Shown here piece after piece: positions 29,150 to 56,612 of a stretch of DNA of 64,000 nucleotides. Numbering within the stretch: the stretch's first letter is position 1; each line of letters opens with the position of its first letter. This DNA is from Escherichia phage phiSUSP1. Under the pieces are notes generated by a model. It did no database searches. It had not been told where the DNA came from and saw only the letters and a list, made by a program, of their open reading frames with translations. Both the position numbers and the translations under genes were made by a program. Location: sequence record KT454805; one strand, 5' to 3'.

Positions 29150-29310
29150 ACGTGGCTACTACCATCCACCCACACCAGACCAAACCTAGCCTTACCCCAC
29201 CGCACCTTACCGAACCACACCTTACCATACATCACTTAAAAACCCTCTTAGAAGACTCTTAAGTGATGCTGGTGAGTACCCGTTGGTTTATGCTGCTCAG
29301 TATACTCACC
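29150..29310. repeat. regulatory repeat module copy 2: CA-rich tract + element A + B-like hairpin
   Basis: element A 29230..29265 is a perfect 36-bp copy; 8-bp stem hairpin GGTGAGTA...TACTCACC at 29271..29310; CA-rich tract 29150..29229 shares blocks with 27603..27673. Confidence 0.7.
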
Positions 29311-29322
29311 AAATTTTCTATG

Positions 29323-29511
29323 TCAACAACTTTCTAATAAAGTTTTATAAAGATTTTGCTTAACGACTCGCCTCACATGCCTATGCTCTTTCTTAATAAA
29401 GAGTGACCTCTTCTTGATAGAGCGCCTATTCTTGTAAGTGTTGCTAGGGTACTTATCGTGACCCGGACAACAACTGCCAGGATTTGTAAACTTGATAATC
29501 TCTCTTTTCAC
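29323..29511 (-). CDS. small basic ORF (62 aa), doubtful
   Basis: GTG start overlapping ligase stop by 1 nt; lysine/arginine-rich; may be non-coding leader. Confidence 0.2.
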   Translation of the reverse strand: MKREIIKFTNPGSCCPGHDKYPSNTYKNRRSIKKRSLFIKKEHRHVRRVVKQNLYKTLLESC

Positions 29512-30611
29512 TATTCATAATCCCTAATAACGAGACCAACAGGGAACTGTAAAGACCCCTTACGAGTCATCTTCTGGAACTGAACTGTCAAAGGTTTCCC
29601 GATAAACTCTTCAGGATGTTCAGCAAGATACTGTTTCTTCTCGTGTGTAGTCTTCCATGAAACATCTACAAAGACGTTAGGAAGAGTCTCTACAACGAAC
29701 TTACCATGACCACGCTTATCGGTCTTCACACCAGTAATTTTAAACTCTTCAGTGTGCATCTTCTTGTGCTTAATCAAGAAGTATGAACGGTGACCACACT
29801 CGTAGAAAGATTCTTCAGAGATTGAACGGTACATTGCACCTTCAAACTTAGCTTCAACCCACTTATCATGAGCTTCATCAAACTCTTCCCAAGAATTTAC
29901 ATGGATAGTCTGTACAGGAACAACTCTACAGGTATCCCCAAGCTGAACGAGAGGTGAACTGTCAATAACTTCACGACGCTCAGGCCAAGATTTTGAATTG
30001 TCACAGATATCATACCAGTAGAATTTAAGAAGGTGACGGTCTGGATTGTCAGCATTCTTAATCATAGAGACAATATCTTCTAAGTCCCAACCATGAGCAT
30101 AAATCTCACCATCAAAGTCTTCAACTTGTGGATGTAATTTAAGCAACAAAAGCAAATCTGGGATTAGTTCTGTTGGAACGTTGTAAACAGTATTCTCACG
30201 AGAATAAGCCGTGAAACTAACTGAATCAGCATTCTTTGAAATCCTACAACGGACACCATCAAGTTTTGGTTGAGCATCAGCAGGGAACTTCAGATACTTT
30301 GCATGGCTAACCTTTGCAGCATCATGAGCAAGCTGTACACCAACCTTCTCAACACACTCTGCTTCAGATTTTGTGTAAGCGTAACCTTTACGGTCAACCT
30401 GTTTCTTGTACTTAGCAGCAACTTCAAAGAGAGCTTGCTGTTCAGCATTACGCTCATTCTTTTTACCGATGTTTTTCGGTTCTGCTGTGTACTCTTCAAA
30501 CATCATCTTGCCATTTTCTTTACCGTAAGTTGTGACAACTTTATCACCTACGGCAACACATGACCAGACGTTGAAAGAACCATCTTTATTTTGTTTGTAC
30601 AGGATTGTCAT
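29511..30611 (-). CDS. ATP-dependent DNA ligase
   Basis: adenylation motif KLDGVRC; 366 aa, similar in size to T7 ligase. Confidence 0.8.
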   Translation of the reverse strand: MTILYKQNKDGSFNVWSCVAVGDKVVTTYGKENGKMMFEEYTAEPKNIGKKNERNAEQQALFEVAAKYKKQVDRKGYAYTKSEAECVEKVGVQLAHDAAKVSHAKYLKFPADAQPKLDGVRCRISKNADSVSFTAYSRENTVYNVPTELIPDLLLLLKLHPQVEDFDGEIYAHGWDLEDIVSMIKNADNPDRHLLKFYWYDICDNSKSWPERREVIDSSPLVQLGDTCRVVPVQTIHVNSWEEFDEAHDKWVEAKFEGAMYRSISEESFYECGHRSYFLIKHKKMHTEEFKITGVKTDKRGHGKFVVETLPNVFVDVSWKTTHEKKQYLAEHPEEFIGKPLTVQFQKMTRKGSLQFPVGLVIRDYE

Positions 30612-30796
30612 TACATCTCCTTGCTCTTATCTAAGAATCTTGCACCGCAGCTATTACATTCATATAAACCTAATTTTGTGTTGTCAGGTTTATGAAAGCA
30701 ATTACACCCACATTTGCAAGAGAACTCACCACCAGCTACTGTGATTATGAACGTCTCAATGTTTCCGTCTTCAGTTCTTACAGGTTCTGTTTTCAT
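30611..30796 (-). CDS. small Cys-rich zinc-binding protein (61 aa)
   Basis: CKCGCNC ... CNSC. Confidence 0.35.
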   Translation of the reverse strand: MKTEPVRTEDGNIETFIITVAGGEFSCKCGCNCFHKPDNTKLGLYECNSCGARFLDKSKEM

Positions 30797-30999
30797 TTTC
30801 TCTTACCACCAATTTCTACATCAATAACCTGAACATCACCAGCAACATCAAACTTGTGAATGACATTTTCTACAGTGTAAGTCCAACCTTCAATATGAAC
30901 CCATTCACCTTCTCGTGGTACGATTGGATTACGTTGAGCCACCGTTGTAGTAGAATGAACAACATCATAACGGTAGATATAGTTTACTAAAACTTGCAT
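30793..30999 (-). CDS. hypothetical protein (68 aa)
   Basis: ORF track; overlapping start/stop. Confidence 0.35.
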   Translation of the reverse strand: MQVLVNYIYRYDVVHSTTTVAQRNPIVPREGEWVHIEGWTYTVENVIHKFDVAGDVQVIDVEIGGKRK

Positions 31000-31007
31000 A
31001 ATTTTCC

Positions 31008-31235
31008 TTAAAAGAATAAGTCAGAGGCTTTTGGAGAATCTTGCACAAGACCCCACTCAGATTTCTGCCAATCAAGGCCACGATACCATGAAGCCATCGG
31101 GTAACCCATTTCACAGACAATCTTTCCATCTTTCATTTCAAAGAACTCATCAGATGTGAAGTTCTCATTACGTACTTTCTTACCTTGCTTCATTGCTTCA
31201 ACAGCTTCTTCAAAAGTCATTTTTGGTTTCTCCAA
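31008..31235 (-). CDS. DUF2829-like small protein (possible Tad2-like Thoeris signal sponge)
   Basis: N-terminal motif MTFEEAVEAMKQGKKVR and C-terminal W-rich region recalled as DUF2829 family hallmarks; 70-75 aa. Confidence 0.4.
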   Translation of the reverse strand: MEKPKMTFEEAVEAMKQGKKVRNENFTSDEFFEMKDGKIVCEMGYPMASWYRGLDWQKSEWGLVQDSPKASDLFF

Positions 31236-31238
31236 TAC

Positions 31239-31451
31239 TTAAAAGTTAATGTCGATGCGTTCACCCTTAAGGACTCCAGTGCGGTCTCTTGCAATCTTAC
31301 CGTCAACAATAAGGATATGTGCAGCCCTTAAAGAGTCACGATTAAAACCTTTTACGAACTTACTAGGCATCACTACAATGAGCATCTCCTGAATCAACTC
31401 TGGAGTGTAGCAGTTGTCGTGAAGTTGTTGGATAACGTCTGAAAGTGTCAT
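31239..31451 (-). CDS. hypothetical protein (70 aa)
   Basis: ORF track. Confidence 0.35.
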   Translation of the reverse strand: MTLSDVIQQLHDNCYTPELIQEMLIVVMPSKFVKGFNRDSLRAAHILIVDGKIARDRTGVLKGERIDINF

Positions 31452-31502
31452 AAACCCTCCTATACAAGATACAGTATAAGGTACTCTTCCATGAGCACCT
31501 TG

Positions 31503-32030
31503 TCAACTTAGTTTTGCAAACTCTCCGTGAAGTTTCATAGAAGCTTCACAGTAAGCTTTATGGGCTTCTTCAGGGGTGTCATAGTAGCCTAATGACATCT
31601 TTTTACCTTTATAGCTTATTTGCGCAACCCACCTACCAGACTTCTTCTTCAGGCTTACACCCTTATAGCCTGATTTATTGGTGGATAGTTTGCTTTTATT
31701 CCAAGCACTTTGGCAGTCGTCTGCTTCTCTTAAGTTTACAATCCTGTTATCAAGGGAGTCCCCATTACTATGGTCAATAACACCTTTAGGTAACCTACCA
31801 TACACGTACAGCCATGCGAGTCTGTGCGCTTTATGTGCTTTCTTGTCAAAATAGATAGTAATCTGCTTATGACCAGTTGAGTCAATCTGGAGGCTTCCCG
31901 CTACCTGTCCTGCGTACTGGCTATTAAAAACTTTAACAGCCTTTGAGTCGCCCTCTCTACGAAGCCAAGTAAAGACCCCTATTTCGGGGTCATAGTGTAG
32001 TAGTTCCTTTAAACGTTCTTGTGTAATCAT
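31503..32030 (-). CDS. HNH homing endonuclease with AP2 DNA-binding domain
   Basis: HNH region IDHSNGDSLDNRIVNLREA; AP2-like GYKGVS...GRWVAQISYKGKKMSLGYYDTPEEAHKAY; paralogous to ORF 54234..54725. Confidence 0.8.
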   Translation of the reverse strand: MITQERLKELLHYDPEIGVFTWLRREGDSKAVKVFNSQYAGQVAGSLQIDSTGHKQITIYFDKKAHKAHRLAWLYVYGRLPKGVIDHSNGDSLDNRIVNLREADDCQSAWNKSKLSTNKSGYKGVSLKKKSGRWVAQISYKGKKMSLGYYDTPEEAHKAYCEASMKLHGEFAKLS

Positions 32031-32040
32031 TTTGTCACCA

Positions 32041-34740
32041 TTAATGCACTTCCAACCACGATTTACCGACCTTACCAGTACCAGTTACCAGTGTTTTACT
32101 CTTTAGTCCTAAGTTCTTAGAGGCTTGCCCGTAATACCAATCAGTGACAGCCTTCACCTCTGCCGTCATACTTTCTGGACATTCCCAACTTGTCTCATCG
32201 TGATAGGAGCACAATAAACGAGCACCTATAGCTGGTTTACGACCGTTCAACTTCATCAAACCTTCGTCAATCATACGACGGCAAGCAAGGTTAATTGCCT
32301 CGTTCTGAATCTGGCTTTCCGAACCCATGAGCAAGTAGTTCAACAGTTTGTGTGGAGACTTACACCACAACCATGCTCCAGCAACCTTGACAAAACCACC
32401 TTTAGCAATTGCAGCAGTCTTACCAAATACCTCTTCAAGTGCTTTCTTAGTTGCTTTAAAGTCAGCTTCCAAGTCATCTAACAGTTTCTTAATCTTCGGC
32501 AAACGCACAAAGTAAGTCTGTTTAGTCAATGCACCTTCCTGAGTAGTCGCAGCTTTAATCGTCTTAGCAAACTTCTCATCACCAGCACCAAACAGCAACG
32601 CATAGATGCCATTCTTAGCTTTCTTACGACCTTTACTAATTTCGTGAAGAAGATTTTCATCCTGAGTCATACGACAAGTCAAGATGTCTTGTTCTTCGTT
32701 CAAACTGAAGTAGATACTGTTCAGTGTATGAGCATCAGTGCCTGAGTAAACTACGTACAAATCGTTTTCAGAGTCATAACGCAGATACTTATCAACTTCT
32801 GGATTCAGGTATTCGTCAAAGTGTTTGCAGTAATATCTGCCATCTTCCTGACGGATAAACTCAATCTCTTCTTTACCTTGAGTTACCGCTTTGGTGAACT
32901 CTTTGTCACCCATAAAGTTACACAGCAAAACAAGCTGTGCAGAGTTCATGTCAACGGAAACTACGTTGGTTCCTTCTTCACAAATCCAGACTGCCCTCAT
33001 TGGTTCACCGTAAACAGCAGCCCCAGAAGGTACGTTCACAATCCCGTATTGTGTCATACGTCCAGTTGAAGTACCAAACACCATTGCACCAGCACTCAAA
33101 CGACCATCTGGACGAATCTGGTTTAACCAACCCTTTTCATCATCCTTTGAGTTCTCAATAGTCCTGCGTCGGTGCATCAAAGTGTAGTACTTCGCAATCT
33201 TCTGTCCAAGTTCACCTTCAATCGTATCATAAGATGATTCAGTCAGTTTCGGTGAAGTACGAATCAAGCAAGGCTCAAGCAAATCTGTGTACTTCTTCAC
33301 AGACCAGTTGTGTTCGATGTACTGTACACCTTCATGCTCAACATAGTTCAACCCGCAACGGTCTACCATCTCTTGCCATTTCGGATGTTTACGAATCATC
33401 TTCTTGTTGTCTTTGAAGCGACAAACCTTCACCGGACGACCATCAGAATCTTTCTTGTAGTTCCAGTCATCAGGAATCCAGCCAAGAGTTTTCAGATAAT
33501 CCTTCACAACCGCAACCTGAGTCATGCGTGAAACTTCAAACTCAATTGGTGTATAAGGTGCATCAATCAAACCTGTGTAACGACTTGACTCAAGTTCGAA
33601 GTGGTTTACTACGTGATTGTTGTAGTACTTCACAGTCTTCACAGTCTTAACTGGTTTCCAGTCTTTGCACTTCTTATCAATCGCAGCATTCAACTCGTTA
33701 CAAACTGCACGAGCATCTTTCATTGCCACGAAACCTTCTTTGTACTCTTCTCCAGTAACCGTGTTAGTTGGAGTGTAGCAGTTACGCTTCTCAATGTTGA
33801 AAATCTTGGTAGTTGGTTTACCAAAAGGTTTGATAGCGTAAGTCTGCATCTCACCATTACGAACCTGCTGACGGAACTTAGTTTTTGGATACTTAGTGAT
33901 GCGCTTCAGACCATCTGCTTCACCAAATGTCTCAACGTACTCGTTCCAAGCTTTTGCAAACTCTTCACCAGTGACTTTACCTTTCGTCTTAATAGTCGGT
34001 GGCAGATGAGGCTCAACTTCAGCAGCTAATTCATCAGTCATTCTGTCAAGTTCTTTGACATGGAACTGCATAAGTTCAATATCAGCTTTCCAACCGTTGA
34101 TAGCTTGCTGACTCATCCAGAAAGATGTTTCTTTAGCTCGCATGTAGGTTTCGTAAGTGTCTACACCACACTTCTTCAACTTCAGGTATTCATTATCAAG
34201 AGCACGTTTAGCTTTGGCGTTGATTCGAATATCCTCAACAACACGGTTCAGAATGTCAGCATTCCAGACACCCCACTCTTCAATCTCTGGCTTACGAACA
34301 CCAACACGAGCACCCCATGCAGCCAAACCATGAGCACCTTTGTAACCTTTCGGTGTAGGTCTATCCATCCACTGAACACGAGACTGGATAAGAGAATCCT
34401 GAAAGAAGTCTCCCCAAGGTTTACACTTCGGATTATCAAAGTTCCATAAGTCTGGTGCAATGTGGTTAAACACCCACCAGTCATAGCCAAGACCGTTATG
34501 AATGCAGAGACGTTTTGCCTTAAGAGCAAACTCCACACCTTCACGAAGACCACCTTTGATGTACTTAGTACACTTGTGACCAAGGATAGGTTCATCGGTG
34601 AAGACCCACACAGCAGGTTCGTCACTGTCATCTTTGTAATCTGCAAATGCCATTACGTGTGCTTTTGTGAACTCAAGGAGTAACCCATCAGTTTCGGTAT
34701 CACCTACCAAGTGCAAGTTTTCAAAATCTACGTTTTCCAT
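32041..34740 (-). CDS. DNA polymerase, family A (T7 gp5-like) with 3'-5' exonuclease domain
   Basis: Exo I motif VGDTETDGL at N-terminus; 899 aa. Confidence 0.85.
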   Translation of the reverse strand: MENVDFENLHLVGDTETDGLLLEFTKAHVMAFADYKDDSDEPAVWVFTDEPILGHKCTKYIKGGLREGVEFALKAKRLCIHNGLGYDWWVFNHIAPDLWNFDNPKCKPWGDFFQDSLIQSRVQWMDRPTPKGYKGAHGLAAWGARVGVRKPEIEEWGVWNADILNRVVEDIRINAKAKRALDNEYLKLKKCGVDTYETYMRAKETSFWMSQQAINGWKADIELMQFHVKELDRMTDELAAEVEPHLPPTIKTKGKVTGEEFAKAWNEYVETFGEADGLKRITKYPKTKFRQQVRNGEMQTYAIKPFGKPTTKIFNIEKRNCYTPTNTVTGEEYKEGFVAMKDARAVCNELNAAIDKKCKDWKPVKTVKTVKYYNNHVVNHFELESSRYTGLIDAPYTPIEFEVSRMTQVAVVKDYLKTLGWIPDDWNYKKDSDGRPVKVCRFKDNKKMIRKHPKWQEMVDRCGLNYVEHEGVQYIEHNWSVKKYTDLLEPCLIRTSPKLTESSYDTIEGELGQKIAKYYTLMHRRRTIENSKDDEKGWLNQIRPDGRLSAGAMVFGTSTGRMTQYGIVNVPSGAAVYGEPMRAVWICEEGTNVVSVDMNSAQLVLLCNFMGDKEFTKAVTQGKEEIEFIRQEDGRYYCKHFDEYLNPEVDKYLRYDSENDLYVVYSGTDAHTLNSIYFSLNEEQDILTCRMTQDENLLHEISKGRKKAKNGIYALLFGAGDEKFAKTIKAATTQEGALTKQTYFVRLPKIKKLLDDLEADFKATKKALEEVFGKTAAIAKGGFVKVAGAWLWCKSPHKLLNYLLMGSESQIQNEAINLACRRMIDEGLMKLNGRKPAIGARLLCSYHDETSWECPESMTAEVKAVTDWYYGQASKNLGLKSKTLVTGTGKVGKSWLEVH

Positions 34741-34997
34741 TTTTACTCCCTCTCAAAATCATTGACTCAATACATTACTGCAAAAAGTTTCAAAAAGCAA
34801 GTTGACAATTCACTTGACAAGGTGTTAATCTTTGCGAAGTGGGTTTTAACTTAAAAGACTCCCTTTACAGATTAACTATACAGTTTCTTTAAAACCCTTA
34901 AAAGATTTTTAATAGCTTTTAAGAAGCTTTAAAGTTATACGTATAGAATACGTAAAGAAAACAGATTAAGTTTAATAGGTACTTAAAAGAGGGCATT
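34741..34997. promoter_or_regulatory. divergent promoter region between DNA polymerase and plus-strand replication block
   Basis: two TTGACA hexamers (34802, 34815), TATAGAAT at 34943, and TTAAAAGAC/AAAACCCTTAAAAGA motifs related to the intergenic repeats at 27.7 kb. Confidence 0.4.
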
Positions 34998-35420
34998 ATG
35001 CAGAGAATGTTTGTTCACCCAGACATAGCTGACTTCATGAGAGCTTTAAAAAAGTTGGAAGAACTTGACATTGCTGCTCAAAAGGAATACGCTTACCATC
35101 ATCGTCGAATGGTTGATGTTCAACATGAGATTGAACTCTCCGAAGGCTACGATGAAAGAATGAAATGTTCAGTCTTTGAGCATATGAAGGAGATATCGGC
35201 TGAGAGGCGTAAAGCAAAAGATACACTCTTCTTGATAGATTCTTTAAAAAAGAAGTTGCAAAACGGAACAGACTTAGATAACCTAGCAACACTGATTAGC
35301 GATGTAGAAAGTTCATGGGATAGACATTACTTCCCAAGGTCTGAAAAAGTTCTTGACTTTTCCTCTACAGAGAGCTTAAAGTTATCACGACAAACACTTA
35401 ACAAAATGAGAGAGAATTAA
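34998..35420 (+). CDS. hypothetical protein (140 aa)
   Basis: ORF track. Confidence 0.4.
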   Translation: MQRMFVHPDIADFMRALKKLEELDIAAQKEYAYHHRRMVDVQHEIELSEGYDERMKCSVFEHMKEISAERRKAKDTLFLIDSLKKKLQNGTDLDNLATLISDVESSWDRHYFPRSEKVLDFSSTESLKLSRQTLNKMREN

Positions 35421-47422: not shown

Positions 47423-47664
47423 TGACTTATGTAATTTACTCAAAAGATGGATGCCCACAATGTGTGACTGCTAAAAACTTTGCTCAGGCTCGTGGCCTAG
47501 ACCACGTTGTAAGAATGCTTGGCAAAGATTATGAGCTAAGTGACCTTATGGATATTTCAAAAGTTCCTGTTCGTCAGATGCCTTTCATTATGAAGGTTGA
47601 AGATAATGAAATGAAACCAGTTGGAACACTACAAAACTTTATGGCAGAGGTGAATAATGCTTAA
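47422..47664 (+). CDS. glutaredoxin/NrdH-like redoxin
   Basis: 80 aa with CPQC active-site motif near N-terminus; adjacent to nrdB. Confidence 0.7.
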   Translation: MTYVIYSKDGCPQCVTAKNFAQARGLDHVVRMLGKDYELSDLMDISKVPVRQMPFIMKVEDNEMKPVGTLQNFMAEVNNA

Positions 47665-47857
47665 ACGTTTATGGGATGGTTTTGTTGAAGATGCACCGAT
47701 GATTGCTCTTGCATTCATGGTTATCAGTATGTTTACTGATTTAAAACAAGGTGTCCTCTTCGGAGCTATGCTAGTATGGGTTATCTTTGAGATACTGGAT
47801 ATTCAGCATGACTTAAGCGGAAAACTTAAAAAGCTTATTGAAAAGTTTTCTAAGTAG
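47657..47857 (+). CDS. small membrane protein (66 aa)
   Basis: two hydrophobic segments (MIALAFMVISMF, FGAMLVWVIFEIL). Confidence 0.3.
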   Translation: MLKRLWDGFVEDAPMIALAFMVISMFTDLKQGVLFGAMLVWVIFEILDIQHDLSGKLKKLIEKFSK

Positions 47858-47866
47858 ATTTAATAT

Positions 47867-47892
47867 AAGGGTCTCTTCGGAGACCTTTTTTG
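47867..47892 (+). terminator. intrinsic terminator (UUCG tetraloop)
   Basis: AAGGGTCTC-ttcg-GAGACCTT followed by TTTTTT. Confidence 0.75.
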
Positions 47893-47906
47893 CATTAGGA
47901 GTTAGA

Positions 47907-50048
47907 ATGGTTAAAGTACAAGTTATTAAGAAAGATGGTTCACTAGAAAAACCAAATGTAAATAAAATCGTTGAAGCAGTCACCAAGTCAGCTAATAGAG
48001 TTGGGTACAAAGAACTACCAATAGAAGTTATCCATGCTCTTGAGTCAGCTTTTAACAGACTGCTTGCCAGAGCAACTAATCAGAATGCAATGCTAATCTC
48101 TGTAGATGACATTCATAGCATCGTTGAAGGGACTCTGGCAGAGGTGAACCATGAAATCTATGAGTCATATTCAACATACAGAAACTACCGTAAAGAGGTG
48201 GCTCAGAATTGGGATGAACTATATCAGAAGACTAAAGACACACTCTTCTTAGGTGACCGTGAGAATGCTAACTTTGACAGTAGCTTAATCTCCACAAAAG
48301 GCTCAATCATCCGTGGTTACCTGACAAAAGAAATCTTTAAGCAGTACCACTTAACACCAGAAGAAACAAGTGCTATTGAAGATGGATTCATTTATATCCA
48401 TGACTTAAGAGATTTAATCTTCGGTGGTATTAACTGCTGCTTGTTTGACATTGGAAGTGTCCTGAAAGGTGGCTTTGAAATGTCCGGCATCGAATACTGT
48501 GAACCTAAGTCTGTGCTATCAGCTTTACAGGTTATCGGTGATGTTGTACTCTCAGCAACTGCACAGCAGTTTGGAGGGTTCACTATTCCAGAGATTGATA
48601 AGGTTCTTGTGCCATATGCTAAGAAGTCTTTTGAGTATCATCTGGAAAAAGCAAAGCAATATAATATCCCAGGCAAGGGAGCATACTACTACGCTAAAGA
48701 GCAACTCCAGATTGAACTAACTCAGGGATTCCAATCACTGGAAATGAAGCTGAACACTGTTCCTTGTAGCCGTGGGGACTTTGCATTCACAACATTAACA
48801 TTTGGTTTACTTGAACCAGATATGGCTAGTGAAGATAACCGTTTGCAATTTATGATTGCTAAGACTATCCTAGATGTTAGGATGAATGGTCAAGGTAAAT
48901 CTAAGAAGCCTGTTGTGTTTCCTAAGCTGGTTTATATCTATGATGAAACAAGACATATACTAGACCCTTGGCAGGGGCAGCTTTATGATAAAGCTATTGA
49001 GTGTTGTTCTAAAGCTATGTATCCAGACTTCTTAAGCGTGTCTGGTAGTGGTTCTGTTGCAGAGGCTTTTGAACGTTCAGGTGCAGTCATCTCTCCAATG
49101 GGTTGCAGGGCTTTCTTATCTCCTTATTACGATGATGAAGGTAAAGAGTTCTATACAGGTCGAGCAAACATTGGTGCAGTATCTCTTAATCTGCCGATGA
49201 TTTACAAGTATTCTGAAGAGAATGACTTAGACTTTTGGAAAGAACTTGACAAGTATCTTGAGATGATTAGAAGCTTCCACAAGAAGCGCTATGAGATGAT
49301 TGCTAATATGCCAGCAAGTTCTAACCCTCTTGCATTCACTCAAGGTGGATTGTATAAAGGTCATAAGAAGCCAACTGATAAGATTGGTTGGGATACTGTG
49401 AAATCTTTTACAGCATCTTTTGGTGTAACTGCATTAGATGAGTTAACAGTGCTTGCCCAAGGTAAAAGGTTGCATGAATCTGATGGTGATATTGCAAGTA
49501 AGGTTTTAAGCTACCTGAATAGCAAGCTGGAGCAGTTTAAGCAGGAAGATGGTTTCTTGTATGCCCTCTATGGTACACCTGCTGAGAGCCTTTGTGGTAC
49601 GCAATTGAAGCAGTTCAGAAATATGTTCGGAGTTGTTAAAGGTGTTTCTGATAAAGAATACTTTACAAATAGTTTTCACATGAATGTTGGTGCAGATATC
49701 ACACCGTTTGAAAAGCAAGACTTAGAAGAACCTTTCTTCCATTCTTGTAATGGAGGCCATATCCAGTATGTTCGTATCGCTAACCCAGAGAACCACAAAG
49801 CCATTAGAGCTTGTGTAACAAGGGGTATGGGTAAAGGTTTCTATCAAGGTGTTAACTTTGATTTAGCAATCTGTGAAAATTGTGGTCACCGTCCAAGTGC
49901 AGATGTTGAATTATGTCCTAAGTGCAACTCACACGATATCTCTGTGATTAATAGGGTGTGTGGTTATCTTTCGTTCACTAAGATTAAAGGACAGTCTCGA
50001 ATGAACGATGCAAAAATTGCCGAGATTAAGGATAGAAAGTCTATGTAA
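47907..50048 (+). CDS. nrdD: anaerobic ribonucleotide reductase (class III)
   Basis: C-terminal zinc ribbon CENCGH...CPKC and glycyl-radical motif RVCGYL; ORF track start 47838 overlaps the terminator, ATG at 47907 with AGGAG RBS more likely. Confidence 0.85.
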   Translation: MVKVQVIKKDGSLEKPNVNKIVEAVTKSANRVGYKELPIEVIHALESAFNRLLARATNQNAMLISVDDIHSIVEGTLAEVNHEIYESYSTYRNYRKEVAQNWDELYQKTKDTLFLGDRENANFDSSLISTKGSIIRGYLTKEIFKQYHLTPEETSAIEDGFIYIHDLRDLIFGGINCCLFDIGSVLKGGFEMSGIEYCEPKSVLSALQVIGDVVLSATAQQFGGFTIPEIDKVLVPYAKKSFEYHLEKAKQYNIPGKGAYYYAKEQLQIELTQGFQSLEMKLNTVPCSRGDFAFTTLTFGLLEPDMASEDNRLQFMIAKTILDVRMNGQGKSKKPVVFPKLVYIYDETRHILDPWQGQLYDKAIECCSKAMYPDFLSVSGSGSVAEAFERSGAVISPMGCRAFLSPYYDDEGKEFYTGRANIGAVSLNLPMIYKYSEENDLDFWKELDKYLEMIRSFHKKRYEMIANMPASSNPLAFTQGGLYKGHKKPTDKIGWDTVKSFTASFGVTALDELTVLAQGKRLHESDGDIASKVLSYLNSKLEQFKQEDGFLYALYGTPAESLCGTQLKQFRNMFGVVKGVSDKEYFTNSFHMNVGADITPFEKQDLEEPFFHSCNGGHIQYVRIANPENHKAIRACVTRGMGKGFYQGVNFDLAICENCGHRPSADVELCPKCNSHDISVINRVCGYLSFTKIKGQSRMNDAKIAEIKDRKSM

Positions 50049-50056
50049 GGTGGTGA

Positions 50057-50620
50057 ATGAACTATGAACTAATCTATGACAAGTTAATGAAGAAAGCACA
50101 CTCTGAGAGGGGTGTGCCTTTAACATTTTACAAATGCCAAGGCTTAGGTTATGAGAGACACCATATCAAACCACTGTGTCTCGGAGGGGATAGATTTGAC
50201 GGTAGCAATATAGCCTTATTAACACCAAGGGAACATTATATTGCACACAAGCTTTTGGTTAAGATGCATCCTGAAAAGTACAAACTCTGGATTGCTTGGC
50301 AAAGGCTGTCTACAGATGGACTAAATAGAAAGGTTTCATCAAGAGACCATGAACACGTCAAACGTTTAAACTCAAAAGCTATGTCTATAATCAATAAAGG
50401 TAGATTGTTTACAGATGAGCATAGGTTTAGATTGAGTCAATCCCAGATTGGTAATACCAAGCCCAAAGGGTGTAAGAGGTCTTTAGAAACAAGGCAACGA
50501 ATGTCAGAATCTGCAAAGAAACCACAGGCGAAAAAGACGTGCCCATACTGCGGCATGACAGGTGGTGCAAGCAACATGACACGTTACCATTTTGAGAATT
50601 GTAAAAGTAAATCTATGTAA
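50057..50620 (+). CDS. HNH homing endonuclease inserted between nrdD and nrdG
   Basis: HNH motif ERHHIKPLCLGGDRFDGSNIALLTPREHYIAH; C-terminal Cys cluster. Confidence 0.75.
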   Translation: MNYELIYDKLMKKAHSERGVPLTFYKCQGLGYERHHIKPLCLGGDRFDGSNIALLTPREHYIAHKLLVKMHPEKYKLWIAWQRLSTDGLNRKVSSRDHEHVKRLNSKAMSIINKGRLFTDEHRFRLSQSQIGNTKPKGCKRSLETRQRMSESAKKPQAKKTCPYCGMTGGASNMTRYHFENCKSKSM

Positions 50621-50629
50621 GTAGTTGAC

Positions 50630-50670
50630 AAGGTGGTGTAGGTCTTGATAGGCTTACATCACCTTTTTTT
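50630..50670 (+). terminator. intrinsic terminator with 13-bp stem (two G-U wobbles)
   Basis: AAGGTGGTGTAGG...CTTACATCACCTT followed by TTTTTTT; a TTGACA hexamer sits immediately 5' at 50625. Confidence 0.6.
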
Positions 50671-50685
50671 ATTAGGAATCACAAC

Positions 50686-50787
50686 ATGATTAAGACATTC
50701 TTGTTAGTCACCTTAGTAGGCTCTGTTTTACTAGGTTTCTTGTTAGGGCTTTTATACAACACATTGAAAGGAAAGAAAGATGACTAA
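50686..50787 (+). CDS. small single-pass membrane peptide (33 aa), not in ORF track
   Basis: ATG at 50686 with AGGAA RBS; translation MIKTFLLVTLVGSVLLGFLLGLLYNTLKGKKDD; overlaps next gene start by 8 nt. Confidence 0.25.
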   Translation: MIKTFLLVTLVGSVLLGFLLGLLYNTLKGKKDD

Positions 50788-51172
50788 GTTAAATAAAAAT
50801 CAAATAAATTGGCTTAAAGACTATGCTTTAGAGTGTGGCTCTTGTAAGAAAACTCACAGAAAATACTCAGAGTTTTACATCACTTGCACATTGATGATAG
50901 ATGAAGAGGTTATTGGTGAATCTGAGGAAGAAGGTATTAGTATCCCTCCATCACTATGTGGTAAAGTTTTGGTAGCAACTGGTACATGGTCAGACTCATA
51001 TGGCACAGAGATTGGTGACCTATCCTTCTACAGCATTGAACAAACGATGAATCCAAAATATGTTACTCTTATGACTCGTGCTCAGGAAGATGAACTCCTT
51101 CAGGAATTTATTAAAGAACACTGTGAAGAGTACGTCACAAAACATGTAAGGTTTGAAGTTGAGGTGATTTAA
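50780..51172 (+). CDS. hypothetical protein (130 aa)
   Basis: ORF track; CGSC motif near N-terminus. Confidence 0.4.
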   Translation: MTKLNKNQINWLKDYALECGSCKKTHRKYSEFYITCTLMIDEEVIGESEEEGISIPPSLCGKVLVATGTWSDSYGTEIGDLSFYSIEQTMNPKYVTLMTRAQEDELLQEFIKEHCEEYVTKHVRFEVEVI

Positions 51173-51657
51173 TGAATTACATGGAAATACGAAAATTCGA
51201 TACAGCAAACGGTGAAGGTGCTCGTGTTAGTCTTTTTGTAGCTGGCTGCAAACACCACTGTGAAGGATGCTTTAACAGGGAGTCTTGGAAGTTTAATGCT
51301 GGCAAGGAGTTTACTTATGCAAACCTTTATGGCATTATGCAACTAATGAACGATGATGCTATCAGTGGATTCTCTATATTAGGTGGAGAACCTCTTGATG
51401 ACCGAAACGTACAGGAAGTGACAAATATCTGTAAGCGGATTAAGACTGTCTATCCAGATAAAACTATATGGTTGTGGACAGGTTACCAGCTACATGAAAA
51501 AATTCACTTAGAAGTGATGAAATATGTTGACGTGGTAGTAGATGGTAAGTATGATGCTTCTAAACCGACACACAAACCATATCGTGGGTCTGATAATCAA
51601 ATACTTTGGAGAAAAGAATATGGCTGGCAAGGTGACTGTCAATGGAGAGCAGAGTAG
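51172..51657 (+). CDS. nrdG: anaerobic ribonucleotide reductase activating protein (radical SAM)
   Basis: CX3CX2C motif CKHHCEGC; 161 aa; follows nrdD. Confidence 0.8.
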   Translation: MNYMEIRKFDTANGEGARVSLFVAGCKHHCEGCFNRESWKFNAGKEFTYANLYGIMQLMNDDAISGFSILGGEPLDDRNVQEVTNICKRIKTVYPDKTIWLWTGYQLHEKIHLEVMKYVDVVVDGKYDASKPTHKPYRGSDNQILWRKEYGWQGDCQWRAE

Positions 51658-51898
51658 CTACTCTGGTAAGTGGATTTATAACATCAACAAGCTTGATGCT
51701 TGGATGGTTTATACTCAAGAAAAATTTGGTGAGAGTGGTTTAACGGCTTTAGCTGCACTTGTTAAGCAGGTAACATTCACAGTTGAAGAAAAATCAACAC
51801 TTGGGGATGGACTAATGCTTTTCACTGATGTAAGATACGGAAACATACAAGTCTGTATTGAAAAAGAAGAACTAGACCAGTTCTGTATTAAACTTTAA
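51620..51898 (+). CDS. hypothetical protein (about 92 aa)
   Basis: in-frame ATG at 51620 with GGAGAAAAG RBS within ORF 51542..51898. Confidence 0.35.
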   Translation: MAGKVTVNGEQSSYSGKWIYNINKLDAWMVYTQEKFGESGLTALAALVKQVTFTVEEKSTLGDGLMLFTDVRYGNIQVCIEKEELDQFCIKL

Positions 51899-51913
51899 AA
51901 GAGAGATATTAAA

Positions 51914-52171
51914 ATGGGTATTTTTTCAAACATGAAAGCAGGTTTATTAGCAGCTCTGGCAAAAGCAGCAGCTATCGTTTCAATGACTGGTAAGCAGGTT
52001 GGAGTAGATGCTTCAGCAGTTGCACAGGTTTTTGCAAGCCAGATTGGACAGCAACCTTACATCCATGTTGGACGTGGTAAAGGTGGTAAGAAACAAGCTC
52101 ATCGCCAAACTGGTGCAGCAGCAATTAAACGTGCAGCTAAAAAAGCTCGCAACCGTAAACGTAGCAAGTAA
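51914..52171 (+). CDS. small basic protein (85 aa)
   Basis: C-terminus KRAAKKARNRKRSK. Confidence 0.35.
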   Translation: MGIFSNMKAGLLAALAKAAAIVSMTGKQVGVDASAVAQVFASQIGQQPYIHVGRGKGGKKQAHRQTGAAAIKRAAKKARNRKRSK

Positions 52172-52182
52172 GGATTACTAAA

Positions 52183-52494
52183 ATGGAAAAGATTTATAAC
52201 ACCCGTAAAATTCAGATTGCAATTCTGTGCCAATTCATGGCTGATAAACATGATTCACACTATTGCGGTACAGGTTTTCTTACTCTAGGTGGTGGGTATG
52301 TCAGCTTCAAAGAGGCTGTGAAGATGTACAATGAACATCCTGAAGATGATAAAGAGTTGAAGCAACTGAAGCTTACCTATGATAAGAAACGTAAGAAAAT
52401 TATATGCTTGAACAACCTTATCAAGCCAACTGAAAACGTTCATGATTCAATTGGCGAAGAAGGTTTCTTCAAAGTCTTGAAATTGGCTCAGTAA
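52183..52494 (+). CDS. hypothetical protein (103 aa)
   Basis: ORF track. Confidence 0.35.
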   Translation: MEKIYNTRKIQIAILCQFMADKHDSHYCGTGFLTLGGGYVSFKEAVKMYNEHPEDDKELKQLKLTYDKKRKKIICLNNLIKPTENVHDSIGEEGFFKVLKLAQ

Positions 52495-52506
52495 GAGTAT
52501 ATGATT

Positions 52507-52531
52507 AGGGAACTGTAAAAGGTTCCCTTTT
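52507..52531 (+). terminator. intrinsic terminator
   Basis: GGGAAC-tgtaaaa-GGTTCCC followed by TTTTT. Confidence 0.7.
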
Positions 52532-52546
52532 TATTTTGGAGAAATC

Positions 52547-53062
52547 ATGTACTATTCAAATCTAAAACATGCTGCTGCAATGTCTGTTCTTCGTCTTGAT
52601 TTCGATGAGCGTCAAGAGTTCATTGAATCCCACAAGTATAATCCTTCAAATTCTAATCACATGGTACTTTGGAACCGTGGTAAGTTCCGTGACAGTACCC
52701 TGTTTCAATACTATCCCCACTATACCATTGATAACCTCTATGAATATTGTGTTGTCAAGAACACTATAGCAACTCTTAACAAGCTTTGTAGATACTCTGG
52801 GAAGAAAGCTTTCACATTAGGCCACCATAAGCCTGTGACAAAAGGTGGAGAACATCATTGCTCAAACTGGTTTATTCAGACACAAGAAGATAATCAGAAG
52901 CAAGGTGAGAAGCTTCCTGAGACTCCTAAGATGACTTGGGAAGAACAAAAAGCATATCTCAGAAATAATATGCCACCAATGCTTGACAAGGACTATTCAA
53001 TTCTGGCAATATCTCTCTTGTTGAAGCTTGAGACAGTTTATGAGGCAACTTATCATGGCTAG
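52547..53062 (+). CDS. hypothetical protein with HNH-like motif (171 aa)
   Basis: LGHHKPVTKGGEHHCSNWFIQTQEDNQKQG resembles an HNH core. Confidence 0.35.
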   Translation: MYYSNLKHAAAMSVLRLDFDERQEFIESHKYNPSNSNHMVLWNRGKFRDSTLFQYYPHYTIDNLYEYCVVKNTIATLNKLCRYSGKKAFTLGHHKPVTKGGEHHCSNWFIQTQEDNQKQGEKLPETPKMTWEEQKAYLRNNMPPMLDKDYSILAISLLLKLETVYEATYHG

Positions 53063-53333
53063 AGAACAATGGGAAATCAAAGAACTCATTAGTGAAGCTG
53101 GAAATGGTAGTGAGATGTATATGATACGTGGTCACGTCCCAGATGCACTTGCTATTGAAATGATTGACCACTACTCCAACGGATTCTATAAAGAATTTGG
53201 AGAGCCAAATATTGAACGTACTTGGACAAAACCAGTACCAGATGGAACAGGGAACTGTTCAGTTATCTATCACATTGTAGACCCAAAGAAATGTAAGTCA
53301 GCTATGGCTGTAACATTTGTAACTTTTGACTGA
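53055..53333 (+). CDS. hypothetical protein (about 92 aa)
   Basis: in-frame ATG at 53055 within ORF 53028..53333. Confidence 0.3.
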   Translation: MAREQWEIKELISEAGNGSEMYMIRGHVPDALAIEMIDHYSNGFYKEFGEPNIERTWTKPVPDGTGNCSVIYHIVDPKKCKSAMAVTFVTFD

Positions 53334-53343
53334 GAGAAATATT

Positions 53344-54225
53344 ATGAAAACTATTATTCAAGTCCTGATTAATTCAAACTCTAAAGGCACTCACCAAGAG
53401 AACTTCAACATTATCCAGTTCCCTTCAGGAGAAATTGGTGGTAACTTCTCAGAAGATTTGGTAGACTTTGTTGAACATGCTGCTGGTAAGATTGATAACG
53501 TAATCTTCACGGTACAAGGCTATGATAAAGATACACTCTTTGCATTAGCTCTGGCTAAAGAAGCAATTGACCGTATGATTCCTCAGAAAGCAGCTATGAA
53601 GACTGTTGTCTTTGGTTTCTTACCAAATGCTAGATATGACCGTCACATGTTTAAAGGTGATGCAGCAGCACTTAAAGCATTTGCAAATCTTGTAAACGCT
53701 ATGGAGTTTGATGCAATTTGTGCTCTGGATGCTCATAGTAACGTGGCAGAGAATCTATTTAAGTGCTTCTACAACCTACCTCAAAAAGAGGCAGCAGTAC
53801 ACTTTGCAAGTGACCCACGAATTGATTACTTAGTGGCTCCAGATGCAGGTGCAGCTAAGAAGACTGAAGAAGCTGCTAAGGATGTTGAGAAGCCTTATAT
53901 CACAATGGCTAAGGTGCGTAACCTGAAAACTGGTGAAATCACTGGTATGCGAATCCTTGATGACGTAGATTTAACAGGCAAGACTGTCATGATTCTGGAT
54001 GATATCTGTGACGGTGGTCGTACCTTCATTGAGGCTGCAAAGTATCTTCGTGAAGCTGGTGCAGAACGTGTAGAACTGTATGTCACTCATGGGATTTTCT
54101 CTAAAGGTGTTGAAAATCTTCTTGACAACGGTATTGACCATATCTACACTACAAACTCACTAGGCGATGTAGAAGACCGTGGACTTTCACACTTCTCACA
54201 AGTGACTGTAGCAAACATTGAATAG
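53344..54225 (+). CDS. ribose-phosphate pyrophosphokinase family protein (Prs-like; possible ADPR-PP synthetase)
   Basis: Prs blocks ALDAHS, YLVAPDAGAAKK and PRTase loop VMILDDICDGGRT...YVTHGIFS; ORF track start 53326 is TTG, ATG at 53344 more likely. Confidence 0.65.
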   Translation: MKTIIQVLINSNSKGTHQENFNIIQFPSGEIGGNFSEDLVDFVEHAAGKIDNVIFTVQGYDKDTLFALALAKEAIDRMIPQKAAMKTVVFGFLPNARYDRHMFKGDAAALKAFANLVNAMEFDAICALDAHSNVAENLFKCFYNLPQKEAAVHFASDPRIDYLVAPDAGAAKKTEEAAKDVEKPYITMAKVRNLKTGEITGMRILDDVDLTGKTVMILDDICDGGRTFIEAAKYLREAGAERVELYVTHGIFSKGVENLLDNGIDHIYTTNSLGDVEDRGLSHFSQVTVANIE

Positions 54226-54233
54226 GTAACAAG

Positions 54234-54725
54234 ATGGATAAGGGTTACTTTGAAAAATACCTAAGATACGAACCAGAGACAGGTTTGTTAATTTGGAAAG
54301 TAACCCTTTGTAGCACCGCTATTGCTGGTAATGTGGCTGGCACAAGGTCTAAGAAGGGTTATATCCAAGTTCAGATAAACAAGAAGAGGTACTATGCACA
54401 CAATATCGCATGGATTCTATCTGGAGGTGAGATACCAAGTGGATATGAGATAGACCACATAGACCTTGACAAGACAAATAATAAGTTGGAAAACTTAAGA
54501 CTGAGTACAAAGTCACAAAACCAAAGAAATAGAGGTATACAAAAGAACAACAAAACTGGCGTGAAGGGTGTAAGTGTATGTACACAGACAGGTCTTTATA
54601 AAGCAAGAGTGATGCTTTATCATAAAGAATACTTTTGCGGAAGATTTAAAACGCTAGAAGAAGCGAAAGAAGCTGTAATTAAAAAACGATTAGAACTTCA
54701 TGGTAAGTTTGCAAGACATAACTAA
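54234..54725 (+). CDS. HNH homing endonuclease with AP2 domain
   Basis: HNH region IDHIDLDKTNNKLENLRLS; AP2-like GVKGVS...GLYKARVMLYHKEYFCGRFKTLEEAKEA; paralog of 31503..32030. Confidence 0.8.
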   Translation: MDKGYFEKYLRYEPETGLLIWKVTLCSTAIAGNVAGTRSKKGYIQVQINKKRYYAHNIAWILSGGEIPSGYEIDHIDLDKTNNKLENLRLSTKSQNQRNRGIQKNNKTGVKGVSVCTQTGLYKARVMLYHKEYFCGRFKTLEEAKEAVIKKRLELHGKFARHN

Positions 54726-54741
54726 TAGAGAGATATAAAAT

Positions 54742-56559
54742 ATGAGTAAATCACTTTACGCAGTACCAGCAGGTCTTAATGCAGATGCTTACAAGTCATC
54801 ACACATCTACCAGTATCCAGATGCTACTCAGTATCTTATGCTGAATTTAACGCCTCGTGGAGACAAATGGTTTAACTCTCCATTAGAAATTGATGGTGTT
54901 GTAGCATTTGGTATTCAGCGTTTTGTAAAAGACTATCTGGTAGACCACTGGAATGCAACGTTCTTTGAACGTGATAAGAAAGAAGCCATTGACGAAATCT
55001 TGGAAATCATGAATGGTGTACTTGGTGCAGATGCCATTGGTCGTCAACATTGGGAAGAACTTCATGACTTAGGTTATCTGCCTGTTGAAGTCTACTCTGT
55101 AGAGGAAGGTACAATTGTCCCTATGCGTGTCCCGATGATTATATTCAAAAACACTGTAGAGGGCTTCCATTGGGTAGCTGGTTATCTCGAAGATGCTTTC
55201 TCTGCTGAAATCTGGAAAGCTTGTACAATTGCAACTATTGCACTACATTACAAACGTATTTGTAAGAAGTGGTCAGATTTGACCTGTGATAACGACTTCC
55301 ATCTTCCTTGGCAGTGTCATGACTTTGCAATGCGTGGTATGTCTGGATTCACAGATGATGCGTTTAACGCAGTAGGTCACCTGACAAGTTTTAAAGGTAC
55401 TGACAGCTTCCCTGCTGTATACACAGCTAAACGTGCATATGGTCAGTTTATGACTGTAAGTGATATCGGGAACTCTGTACCAGCAACTGAACACTCTGTG
55501 ATGTGTGCAAACATCTCATGGAATAGTTGTGCCAAAGAAGTAAGTGATTGGCATCTGCTACAGTCTGACAACTTGTTAGATGCAATGCGTTGGCGTGGTG
55601 AGGTAGAAACTTTCCAACGTCTTCTGACAGAAGTCTACCCAACTGGTATTGCAAGTGTTGTATCAGATACTTACAACTTCTGGAGAACTGTTACACAGAT
55701 TTTACCAGAGCTACGTAATGTGATTCTGAATCGTGATGGTAAGTTGGTAATCCGTCCAGACTCTGGAGACCCTGTTCACATTGTCACTGGTTACAAAGTC
55801 ATTGAATGGGAAACTGCTAAGTCAATGTTCTATAAGCACATGAAAGGTCTTGCACCAGATAACACCCACCTGCATGATGCAATCTTGAATTGTGAAATGG
55901 CTGATATTGGCTTTGGATTATCTGCTTGGCTAATCTCTGAAGGTTATGAGATGGTTGTTGAAAATGAAGATTTTGATTATATTGATACAATCAACCTGAT
56001 TACTGCTCAGAAAACTGGACAGTTTACTGTGAAGCGTATGTTAACAGCAGAAATTGATGGAGCTATCCACACGCTGTATAACATCTTTGGTGGTACTGTT
56101 AACTCCAAAGGGTACAAAGTACTGGATGAGCACATTGGACTAATCTACGGTGATTCTATCACTTTGGAAAGGGCTAATGAGATTCTATCACGTCTTGCTG
56201 ATAAAGGTTTTGCAAGTTCTAACGTAGTGTTTGGTGTAGGTTCATACACCTATCAGTACCTGACTCGTGATACCTTTGCATTTGCTGTTAAAGCAACTCT
56301 TGCACAGATGGACGGTCAAGAAATCATGCTGGCTAAAGACCCTAAAACAGATAGTGGTCTGAAGAAATCTGCTTTTGGTGGAGTCATCCCTATGTGGGAC
56401 GGTGATAAGCTGGAAGCTGTAGATGGTTTTGGTTTTGCAGAGTTTGAAGGTGCAATTGAGAATTGTCAGAGCGCTTTGAAACTGGTATTTAGCAACTCAC
56501 AACCTTATGGTTATGTTAATCTACGTGATGTACGAAATACTATTGACAAGCAACTTTAA
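54742..56559 (+). CDS. nicotinamide phosphoribosyltransferase family protein (Nampt/NadV-like)
   Basis: blocks match Nampt from memory: DAYKSSHIYQYP, HDFAMRGMSGFTDDAFNAVGHLTSFKGTDS, VPATEHS, VVSDTYNFW, LVIRPDSGDPV. Confidence 0.8.
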   Translation: MSKSLYAVPAGLNADAYKSSHIYQYPDATQYLMLNLTPRGDKWFNSPLEIDGVVAFGIQRFVKDYLVDHWNATFFERDKKEAIDEILEIMNGVLGADAIGRQHWEELHDLGYLPVEVYSVEEGTIVPMRVPMIIFKNTVEGFHWVAGYLEDAFSAEIWKACTIATIALHYKRICKKWSDLTCDNDFHLPWQCHDFAMRGMSGFTDDAFNAVGHLTSFKGTDSFPAVYTAKRAYGQFMTVSDIGNSVPATEHSVMCANISWNSCAKEVSDWHLLQSDNLLDAMRWRGEVETFQRLLTEVYPTGIASVVSDTYNFWRTVTQILPELRNVILNRDGKLVIRPDSGDPVHIVTGYKVIEWETAKSMFYKHMKGLAPDNTHLHDAILNCEMADIGFGLSAWLISEGYEMVVENEDFDYIDTINLITAQKTGQFTVKRMLTAEIDGAIHTLYNIFGGTVNSKGYKVLDEHIGLIYGDSITLERANEILSRLADKGFASSNVVFGVGSYTYQYLTRDTFAFAVKATLAQMDGQEIMLAKDPKTDSGLKKSAFGGVIPMWDGDKLEAVDGFGFAEFEGAIENCQSALKLVFSNSQPYGYVNLRDVRNTIDKQL

Positions 56560-56571
56560 AACAGTATGATA

Positions 56572-56596
56572 AGAGGCTCCTACGGGAGCCTTTTTA
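56572..56596 (+). terminator. intrinsic terminator
   Basis: GAGGCTCC-tacg-GGAGCCT followed by TTTTT; identical to the hairpin at 62766. Confidence 0.75.
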
Positions 56597-56612
56597 ATTT
56601 GTGGAGAATGTT

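Follow-up and report, generated by a model that had tools for sequence, protein, structure and literature searches.

The region described here belongs to Escherichia phage phiSUSP1 (sequence record KT454805), of which a stretch of 64,000 nucleotides, referred to below as the window, was analysed. Directly after nrdD, the gene of the anaerobic ribonucleotide reductase, this genome carries a predicted free-standing homing endonuclease gene of the MobE type (Table 1). The first-pass annotation had placed an HNH endonuclease gene between nrdD and nrdG. The gene does lie after nrdD and before nrdG, with the ORF at 50780..51172 also standing in between. The same annotation had listed HNH genes beside the DNA polymerase gene (pol) and between prs and the Nampt-like gene, and Pfam reports HNH_3 in both. 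The start of nrdD was adopted from the annotation of phages Moogle and Michonne. An Rfam scan of the whole 64-kb window returned 0 families at the gathering score, and therefore no match to a tRNA, intron or riboswitch model; Felix O1 is reported to encode 22 tRNAs.

Table 1. Features of the nrdD locus and of the other HNH-related loci in the window.
Feature	Coordinates	Strand	Remarks
Mismatch-free stretch relative to SUSP2	31124..32328	-	1206 bp, centred on the pol-adjacent endonuclease gene
Predicted HNH_3 + AP2 homing endonuclease gene	31503..32030	-	begins 10 nt past the DNA polymerase stop
Terminator-like hairpin upstream of nrdD	47867..47888		
nrdD, anaerobic ribonucleotide reductase	47907..50048	+	Pfam NRDD E 6e-117, ATP-cone, Gly_radical
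nrdD tract linked to the endonuclease gene, apparently co-converted	49953..50048	+	last 96 nt, R-V-C-G-Y-L-S-F-T-K-I-K-G-Q-S...KSM-stop
Left copy of 13-nt direct repeat, AAGTCTATGTAAG	50037..50049	+	forms the new nrdD end K-S-M-stop
Spacer GGTGGTGA, nrdD stop to endonuclease ATG	50049..50056	+	8 nt, resembles a Shine-Dalgarno sequence; read directly
Predicted free-standing MobE-like homing endonuclease gene	50057..50620	+	187-aa ORF, intact, HNH + NUMOD3
Right copy of 13-nt direct repeat, AAATCTATGTAAG	50609..50621	+	corresponds to the nrdD end of the empty allele
Intrinsic terminator	50630..50665	+	16-pair stem and T run; annotated in Michonne and Barry
ORF between endonuclease gene and nrdG	50780..51172		PHROG 4382, no assigned function
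nrdG	51172..51657		
Conserved Ounavirinae core ORF	52547..53062	+	PHROG 3500, weak HNH-like motif
Predicted HNH_3 homing endonuclease gene, AP2-type family	54234..54725	+	flanked by prs (53326..54225) and the Nampt-like gene (54742..56559)
5' end of Nampt-like gene with endonuclease-linked variants	54742..54852	+	

The nrdD-nrdG segment matches the Ounavirinae (Felix O1-like phages), with Citrobacter phage Moogle as the best match (94% identity, 85% query coverage); the uncovered 15% corresponds exactly to the ORF at 50057..50620. About 250 records gave a match to this segment. For the polymerase region the best match is Escherichia phage SUSP2 (97.5%), and across the ligase-pol region (29302..35000) identity is 94% to SUSP2 versus 79% to Moogle. 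The nrdA-to-Nampt region (47000-56600) is Mooglevirus-like, with nrdD 96% identical to Moogle and 81% to SUSP2. Since the polymerase region is SUSP2-like and the nrdD region Moogle-like, the window reads as a mosaic of Suspvirus-like and Mooglevirus-like parts. Two sharply bounded patches of only 60-75% identity to Moogle, at 50860..50950 and 51310..51660, lie inside the ORF at 50780..51172 and in the 3' half of nrdG, and no endonuclease gene adjoins them. Across 51170-51540 the loci L107 and L108 match the window without a difference.

The insert relative to Moogle measures 572 bp, which is the spacing of the two copies of the 13-nt direct repeat. Its architecture leaves nrdD intact, as the cassette brings a new copy of the last codons, and the right repeat copy, read in frame, supplies the last codons and the stop of the endonuclease gene. 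In Moogle and SUSP2 the terminator follows nrdD directly, and the gene has therefore been inserted between nrdD and the nrdD terminator, which in the window starts 9 nt past the endonuclease stop and differs from that of Moogle by one extra T in its T run. No sigma-70-like promoter was predicted on the + strand from 48990 to the endonuclease start, in a scan for sigma-70-type sites only. A ribosome-binding-site hairpin, known from some T4 homing endonuclease genes, was also sought, and the fold at this position is no stabler than that of shuffled sequences (z = +1.5). The endonuclease is probably translated from the nrdD transcript. Derivation from an intron or intein was rejected: nrdD is uninterrupted and closes with a stop of its own, 8 nt before the endonuclease ORF, and no Rfam model, including those of group I introns, reaches the gathering score in the window.

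The encoded protein combines an HNH core at about residues 31-65, a NUMOD3 region at 115-150 and a C-terminal CxxC...H...C knuckle at 162-182. Pfam scores NUMOD3 above its cut-off (E 1.4e-4, 22.1 bits vs 20.4), and PHROG 655, 'homing endonuclease', matches with E 1e-49, which bears out the first-pass call of an HNH endonuclease gene at this position; the ORF is intact. A colicin/pyocin HNH DNase motif was detected below its cut-off (E 1.2e-3), and among solved structures a sequence match was obtained only to colicins E9 and E7, within their HNH motif, where YERHHIKPLCLGGDRFDGSNIALLTPREHYIAH aligns with residues 98-132. When the protein is aligned with 12 homologues from the databases, E33, H35, H36, P39, G44, N51, L55, H60, H64 and L67 are invariant; E33, H35, H36, N51, H60 and H64 are invariant in 13 homologues. 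The knuckle, TCPxC...M.R.HF.NCK, is common to most of the 12 aligned homologues. An AlphaFold model (pLDDT 82) shows the strand-strand-helix arrangement at 33-36, 52-55 and 57-70, followed by helices. Its HNH core superposes locally on ColE7 with 0.8 A across 34 columns, at a search E-value of only 0.3, and a Foldseek search of the model against the PDB gave nothing at E<=0.001. BLASTP aligns T4 MobE, taken from the T4 record, with the phiSUSP1 protein at 36% identity across 133 aa (E 8e-24), which justifies the label 'MobE-like' used in some GenBank records.

Compared with the Felixounavirus allele, the window endonuclease gene shows dN 0.16 with saturated synonymous sites. This saturation makes dN/dS not computable, and the combination points to purifying selection and hence to a working protein. 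On these features, the nrdD-adjacent gene is best classified as a T4 MobE-type free-standing homing endonuclease gene, predicted to encode an HNH (beta-beta-alpha-metal) nuclease with NUMOD3 and a Cys/His knuckle. An IMG/VR search with this protein as sole query returned distant relatives only, with <=50% identity in long stretches. Among the IMG/VR hits no part of the protein is conserved more widely than the knuckle (C-P-Y-C...H-F-E-N-C); it is 70-77% identical in the otherwise unrelated contigs L009, L010 and L020, and it occurs twice in the homologue P0006. No experimental study of an Ounavirinae MobE-like enzyme was found in the literature searched.

Precise empty sites after nrdD occur in Moogle, Michonne and SUSP2. 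In the comparison with Moogle, the identity of nrdD is unevenly distributed. The gene is 96% identical overall, 96-100% up to position 49952 and 98-100% in the 100 nt before 49952. Past this position, in the last ~120 nt of nrdD, the value for Moogle drops to 82% and that for the carrier Barry climbs to 83%. The upstream 2046 nt contain 75-76 differences from Moogle, the last 96-97 nt alone 19-20 (Fisher p 1e-8). The window has the base of Barry at 13 of 19 differing positions, at which Moogle, Michonne and SUSP2 all share another. The left breakpoint is placed within ~49910..49952 for the window and within ~49928..49952 for the Logan contig L106. This contig encodes an endonuclease 99% identical to that of the window, in flanks that are SUSP2-like and only ~80% identical to the window. 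Across the cassette, 49953..50607, only 2 mismatches separate the two (99.7% identity), and divergence starts immediately outside both limits. The Prs-Nampt endonuclease gene of L106 provides an internal control: it is only ~77% identical to that of the window, so the identity of the nrdD cassette is exceptional. To the right of the endonuclease gene a co-conversion tract was looked for and not found; from 50621 to ~50850 the sequence is ~97-100% Moogle-like.

These comparisons indicate that the MobE-like gene has demonstrably jumped between related phages along with the last ~96 nt of nrdD. The comparisons show the transferred unit as a segment of ~665 bp in which these 96 nt, in divergent form, are followed by the spacer and the endonuclease gene, and its right end falls within the repeat/terminator region. 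The linked nrdD segment at 49953..50048 is probably the immune version of the endonuclease target.

A census of nrdD ends, covering 74 IMG/VR loci together with GenBank loci, extends this association. The informative loci were obtained through searches seeded with the adjoining ends of NrdD, Nampt and pol and through exact-protein look-ups. Throughout the Ounavirinae, the gene segregates together with a recoded end of nrdD beside the glycyl-radical motif, CGYLSF..Q in place of CGYLGW..T/E. In all seven carriers (six Ounavirinae census loci and the window) NrdD reads ...CGYLSFTKIKGQS, ...RVCGYLSFTKIKGQS..., and every one of the 24 loci with the GW allele, ...RVCGYLGWTKIKG(T/E)S..., is without the endonuclease gene. 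Within Felixounavirus, an SF..Q group of four carriers plus the empty loci L032 and L033 was compared with gene-lacking GW genomes. The two groups diverge by 24-28% in the last 100 nt of nrdD and by 3-10% in the comparable ~850 nt upstream, the latter being about the divergence found within each group. All 20 fixed differences between them lie at -82..-19 from the nrdD stop. L032 and L033 carry the SF..Q nrdD end with no endonuclease gene, and their junction (~2940-2990) is the expected product of a deletion between the CTATGTAA repeats. These two loci look like precise losses of the gene at the repeat and would represent the empty-but-immune stage of a homing cycle, the immunity being presumed.

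The other two endonuclease genes show comparable signs of exchange. The pol-adjacent gene is recognised by Pfam as HNH_3 (E 2.8e-14) and AP2 (E 1.6e-13) and is 100% identical to the homing endonuclease gene of SUSP2. The gene between prs and Nampt matches HNH_3 (E 9.3e-19) and is annotated in Moogle as an HNH homing endonuclease. The two had been described as similar AP2-type copies. They do align at 33% identity over their full length (E 2e-27), and PHROG 99 matches both end to end, but Pfam AP2 is confined to 31503..32030 and is not reported in 54234..54725 even at E<=10; residues 104-161 of the latter product align with the AP2 region of the former. A recent duplication was rejected at 33% identity, which argues that the two are distant members of one family. 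The MobE-like gene is unrelated to both except for the HNH idea, and a tblastn search of the window with all four proteins found no further paralogues. AP2-HNH endonucleases are reportedly the subject of work by Magnani et al. in 2004. These two genes fit the class of HNH_3 + AP2 phage homing endonucleases (PHROG 99), whereas the nrdD-adjacent gene does not.

The mismatch-free run of 1206 bp around the pol-adjacent gene lies in a background of 2.8% divergence from SUSP2, in which such a length has a P of about 2e-13. This site is empty in Moogle and in 12 of 27 IMG/VR Ounavirinae loci; the remaining 15 hold HNH-AP2 genes that fall into at least five divergent types, and three of these genes look decayed. 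In L161-L163 the post-pol interval (~2450-2935) matches an HNH-AP2 endonuclease at ~45% in tblastn, with no intact ORF of >=60 aa starting there, and these remnants are probably decaying endonuclease genes. The prs-Nampt site is occupied by the gene in Moogle, Mijalis and S.Kent 1-2-1 and is empty in HP1, Michonne, Mordin, SUSP2, Shigella phages, L107 and 22 of 27 IMG/VR loci. L107 is a metagenome scaffold with an identical nrdD endonuclease gene and no prs-Nampt endonuclease gene. The prs gene of the window is HP1-like (94-99%), unlike that of Moogle (76-90%), and despite this the endonuclease gene agrees with the carriers, as do the first ~110 nt of Nampt. In carriers, Nampt codons 18-20 encode K-S-S, or K-S/A-S across the census, in place of K-A/S-G. 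In the 27-locus census this carrier allele (the S-H allele) is found in 5/5 carriers vs 3/22 non-carriers (Fisher p 7e-4).

A fourth HNH-like motif had been proposed in the ORF at 52547..53062. A weak signal is indeed present, from PHROG HNH families (2e-5 and 4e-4) and NCBIfam IscB (8e-4, 18.6 bits vs a cut-off of 175), with no hit in Pfam. The motif FTLGH.KP..GG.HH..NW.IQ...DN.K.G is invariant. A structural model (pLDDT 68) has Cas9 HNH domains as top fold hits, which are not significant (E>=1). The ORF was found in all relatives examined (Moogle, Michonne, Barry, SUSP2, L106 and L107); it was therefore rejected as a fourth mobile endonuclease gene. Its product may be a domesticated HNH-fold protein.

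Among the closest known systems is mobE of phage T4, a promoterless gene co-transcribed with the upstream nrdA, whose product nicks nrdB of phage T2 and spreads with co-conversion (Wilson & Edgell 2009, PMC2790892). The phiSUSP1 gene resembles this homologue in being free-standing, in lying directly after a ribonucleotide reductase gene and in the co-conversion of flanking reductase-gene sequence that accompanies its spread; a promoter of its own is evident for neither gene, the phiSUSP1 locus having been scanned for sigma-70-type sites. The two systems differ in several respects. T4 MobE, at 141 aa, is the shorter protein and has no counterpart to the second half of the phiSUSP1 protein, the CxxC...H...C end included. 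Its gene belongs to the aerobic nrdA-nrdB pair, and the enzyme nicks the downstream nrdB at its 5' end. In phiSUSP1 the host gene is nrdD, of the anaerobic reductase, and the tract linked to the endonuclease gene lies at the 3' end of this upstream gene. An internal terminator, present in T4 mobE, is not predicted in the phiSUSP1 gene.

Within the Ounavirinae, the Felixounavirus genes annotated as 'MobE-like HNH homing endonuclease' (Barry BARRY_0115, BPS17S6, Mushroom) share the locus, the orientation, the SF..Q nrdD end, the 7-8-nt gap past the nrdD stop and the downstream terminator. By these shared traits they clearly belong to the same element family as the phiSUSP1 gene. They show only 74-76% protein identity to it, and nothing closer was present in the phage collection. 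The Felixounavirus gene stops two codons earlier, which leaves CCTATGTAA as a non-coding relic. The phiSUSP1 allele differs further in residing in a Mooglevirus-like backbone, the sequenced isolates of which are empty. Felix O1 has been reported to have six HNH homing endonuclease homologues (PMC3185647). The phiSUSP1 gene is thus a new divergent allele of a known element, and a clear but ordinary case of intronless homing; the nrdD cassette reveals no new kind of element.

Other HNH homing endonuclease genes also target phage ribonucleotide reductase genes. In Aeromonas phage Aeh1, mobE is inserted in nrdA and yields a genes-in-pieces reductase (PMC3045599), and in UAB_Phi87, JH2 and HB-2014 nrdD is split by an HNH gene (PMC4837284). 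The insertions in Aeh1, JH2 and UAB_Phi87 divide the reductase into two ORFs, in contrast to the intact nrdD of phiSUSP1. In JH2 (L024 570-3456) a MobE-like gene also follows the nrdD that is split by another HNH gene; thus two different endonuclease genes are tied to one reductase gene. The post-nrdD site of Shigella phage SFPB (L023 2702-3157) holds an HNH_3/AP2-type (PHROG 99) gene overlapping the nrdD stop, and that of Michonne (L002 3776-4218) holds two small ORFs without assigned function. Homing endonuclease genes have been described at the boundaries of phage genetic exchange (Barth et al. 2023, PMC10448857). The phiSUSP1 genes are similar in that endonuclease genes located by essential genes mark the edges or centres of high-identity tracts; the tracts measure 0.1-1.2 kb here versus islands of >10 kb in that study.

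A mechanism in line with these observations can be outlined as follows. The endonuclease gene would be expressed inside the nrdD transcription unit, 8 nt past the nrdD stop and just before the terminator. During co-infection with a gene-lacking relative, the enzyme would nick or cut the nrdD of that relative near the glycyl-radical codons (...NRVCGYLGWTKIKGTS...). The putative target corresponds to the differing segment, the codons for N-R-V-C-G-Y-L-G-W-T-K-I-K-G-T-S, and is deduced solely from the location of the gene-linked polymorphisms. This segment is the region of the glycyl-radical motif, among the most conserved parts of nrdD. Repair would then copy carrier DNA from the break, through the endonuclease gene and up to the terminator region. 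The copied nrdD end would be the recoded, presumably uncleavable CGYLSF..Q form. A break to the left of the gene fits the one-sided tract; the right flank is Moogle-like. The HNH_3/AP2-type genes would follow the same course, one at the site after pol and the other at the prs-Nampt site.

All three sequence-testable predictions of intronless homing are borne out: empty sites for the three genes, three sharply bounded flanking tracts, and the nrdD cassette in two backbones that have diverged by ~20%. The first-pass annotation had proposed intronless homing and past or ongoing gene conversion at these loci and had suggested a comparison with relatives. That proposal holds up well. Close relatives with empty sites exist at nrdD, after pol and between prs and Nampt, so that not all relatives are occupied, and each endonuclease gene sits in a sharply bounded flanking tract that is either foreign or unusually identical. 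MobE-type homing of the ~665-bp unit, with the HNH_3/AP2-type genes behaving likewise, is with high probability the best explanation of the locus.

An alternative is that the nrdD locus of the Ounavirinae has long held the gene by vertical descent and that most lineages lost it through deletion at the 13-nt repeats, with no recent endonuclease-driven transfer into the lineage of the window. The window-type and Felixounavirus-type genes share ~75% protein identity, which is about the divergence of the backbone (78% for nrdD DNA). Both types retain the CTATGTAA relic after the gene, and L032 and L033 resemble precise deletions, which speaks for such a history. This reading is nevertheless unlikely, since nrdD of the window is 96-100% identical to that of gene-lacking Moogle up to a sharp breakpoint at 49952/3, and the cassette recurs with 99.7% identity in a backbone only ~80% identical, on a contig whose other endonuclease gene is at ~77%. 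Old residency and repeated loss probably also occur, yet they leave the breakpoint and the shared cassette unexplained.

It is also conceivable that ordinary homologous or illegitimate phage recombination (modular mosaicism) moved the cassette, with the HNH protein uninvolved, either inactive or serving DNA binding or regulation. The whole window is a Suspvirus/Mooglevirus mosaic, and the patches at 50860..50950 and 51310..51660 in the same region have no neighbouring endonuclease gene, so that some exchange could be ordinary recombination. As an account of the cassette itself, this is very improbable. The HNH residues of the catalytic core do not vary among the homologues, and purifying selection apparently acts on the protein. 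Each of the three independent endonuclease genes of the window marks the middle or the edge of a tract of exchange. Moreover, a one-sided tract of ~96 nt, 25% diverged and co-segregating with the gene in three genera, is a prediction of break-initiated co-conversion, and the homologue T4 MobE does exactly this (PMC2790892).

Within the favoured account of MobE-type homing, a more specific reading concerns the target itself. It is tentatively proposed, with less than even confidence, that the enzyme recognises the DNA for the NrdD glycyl-radical loop and that immunity arises through amino-acid as well as synonymous changes at near-invariant residues by the radical glycine. RVCGYLG[WY] is replaced by RVCGYLSF in carriers, and T/E by Q; G is kept in 61 of 63 nrdD ends from gene-lacking phage loci. 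If this is true, a selfish nuclease would drive an essential radical enzyme towards an altered allele of its catalytic domain and would spread that allele horizontally across phage genera. Substitutions beside the radical glycine that travel with an endonuclease gene are of specialist interest.

Taken as a whole, the nrdD locus of phiSUSP1 is a clean, naturally occurring record of intronless homing beyond the T4 group. It narrows the mobile unit to ~665 bp and the probable target to ~65-95 nt around the nrdD glycyl-radical codons. Three stages of the homing cycle can be recognised among the sequenced relatives: empty and presumably cleavable, occupied, and empty and presumably immune. Homing of this kind would account for part of the mosaicism in Felix O1-like phages, which are used for typing and biocontrol.
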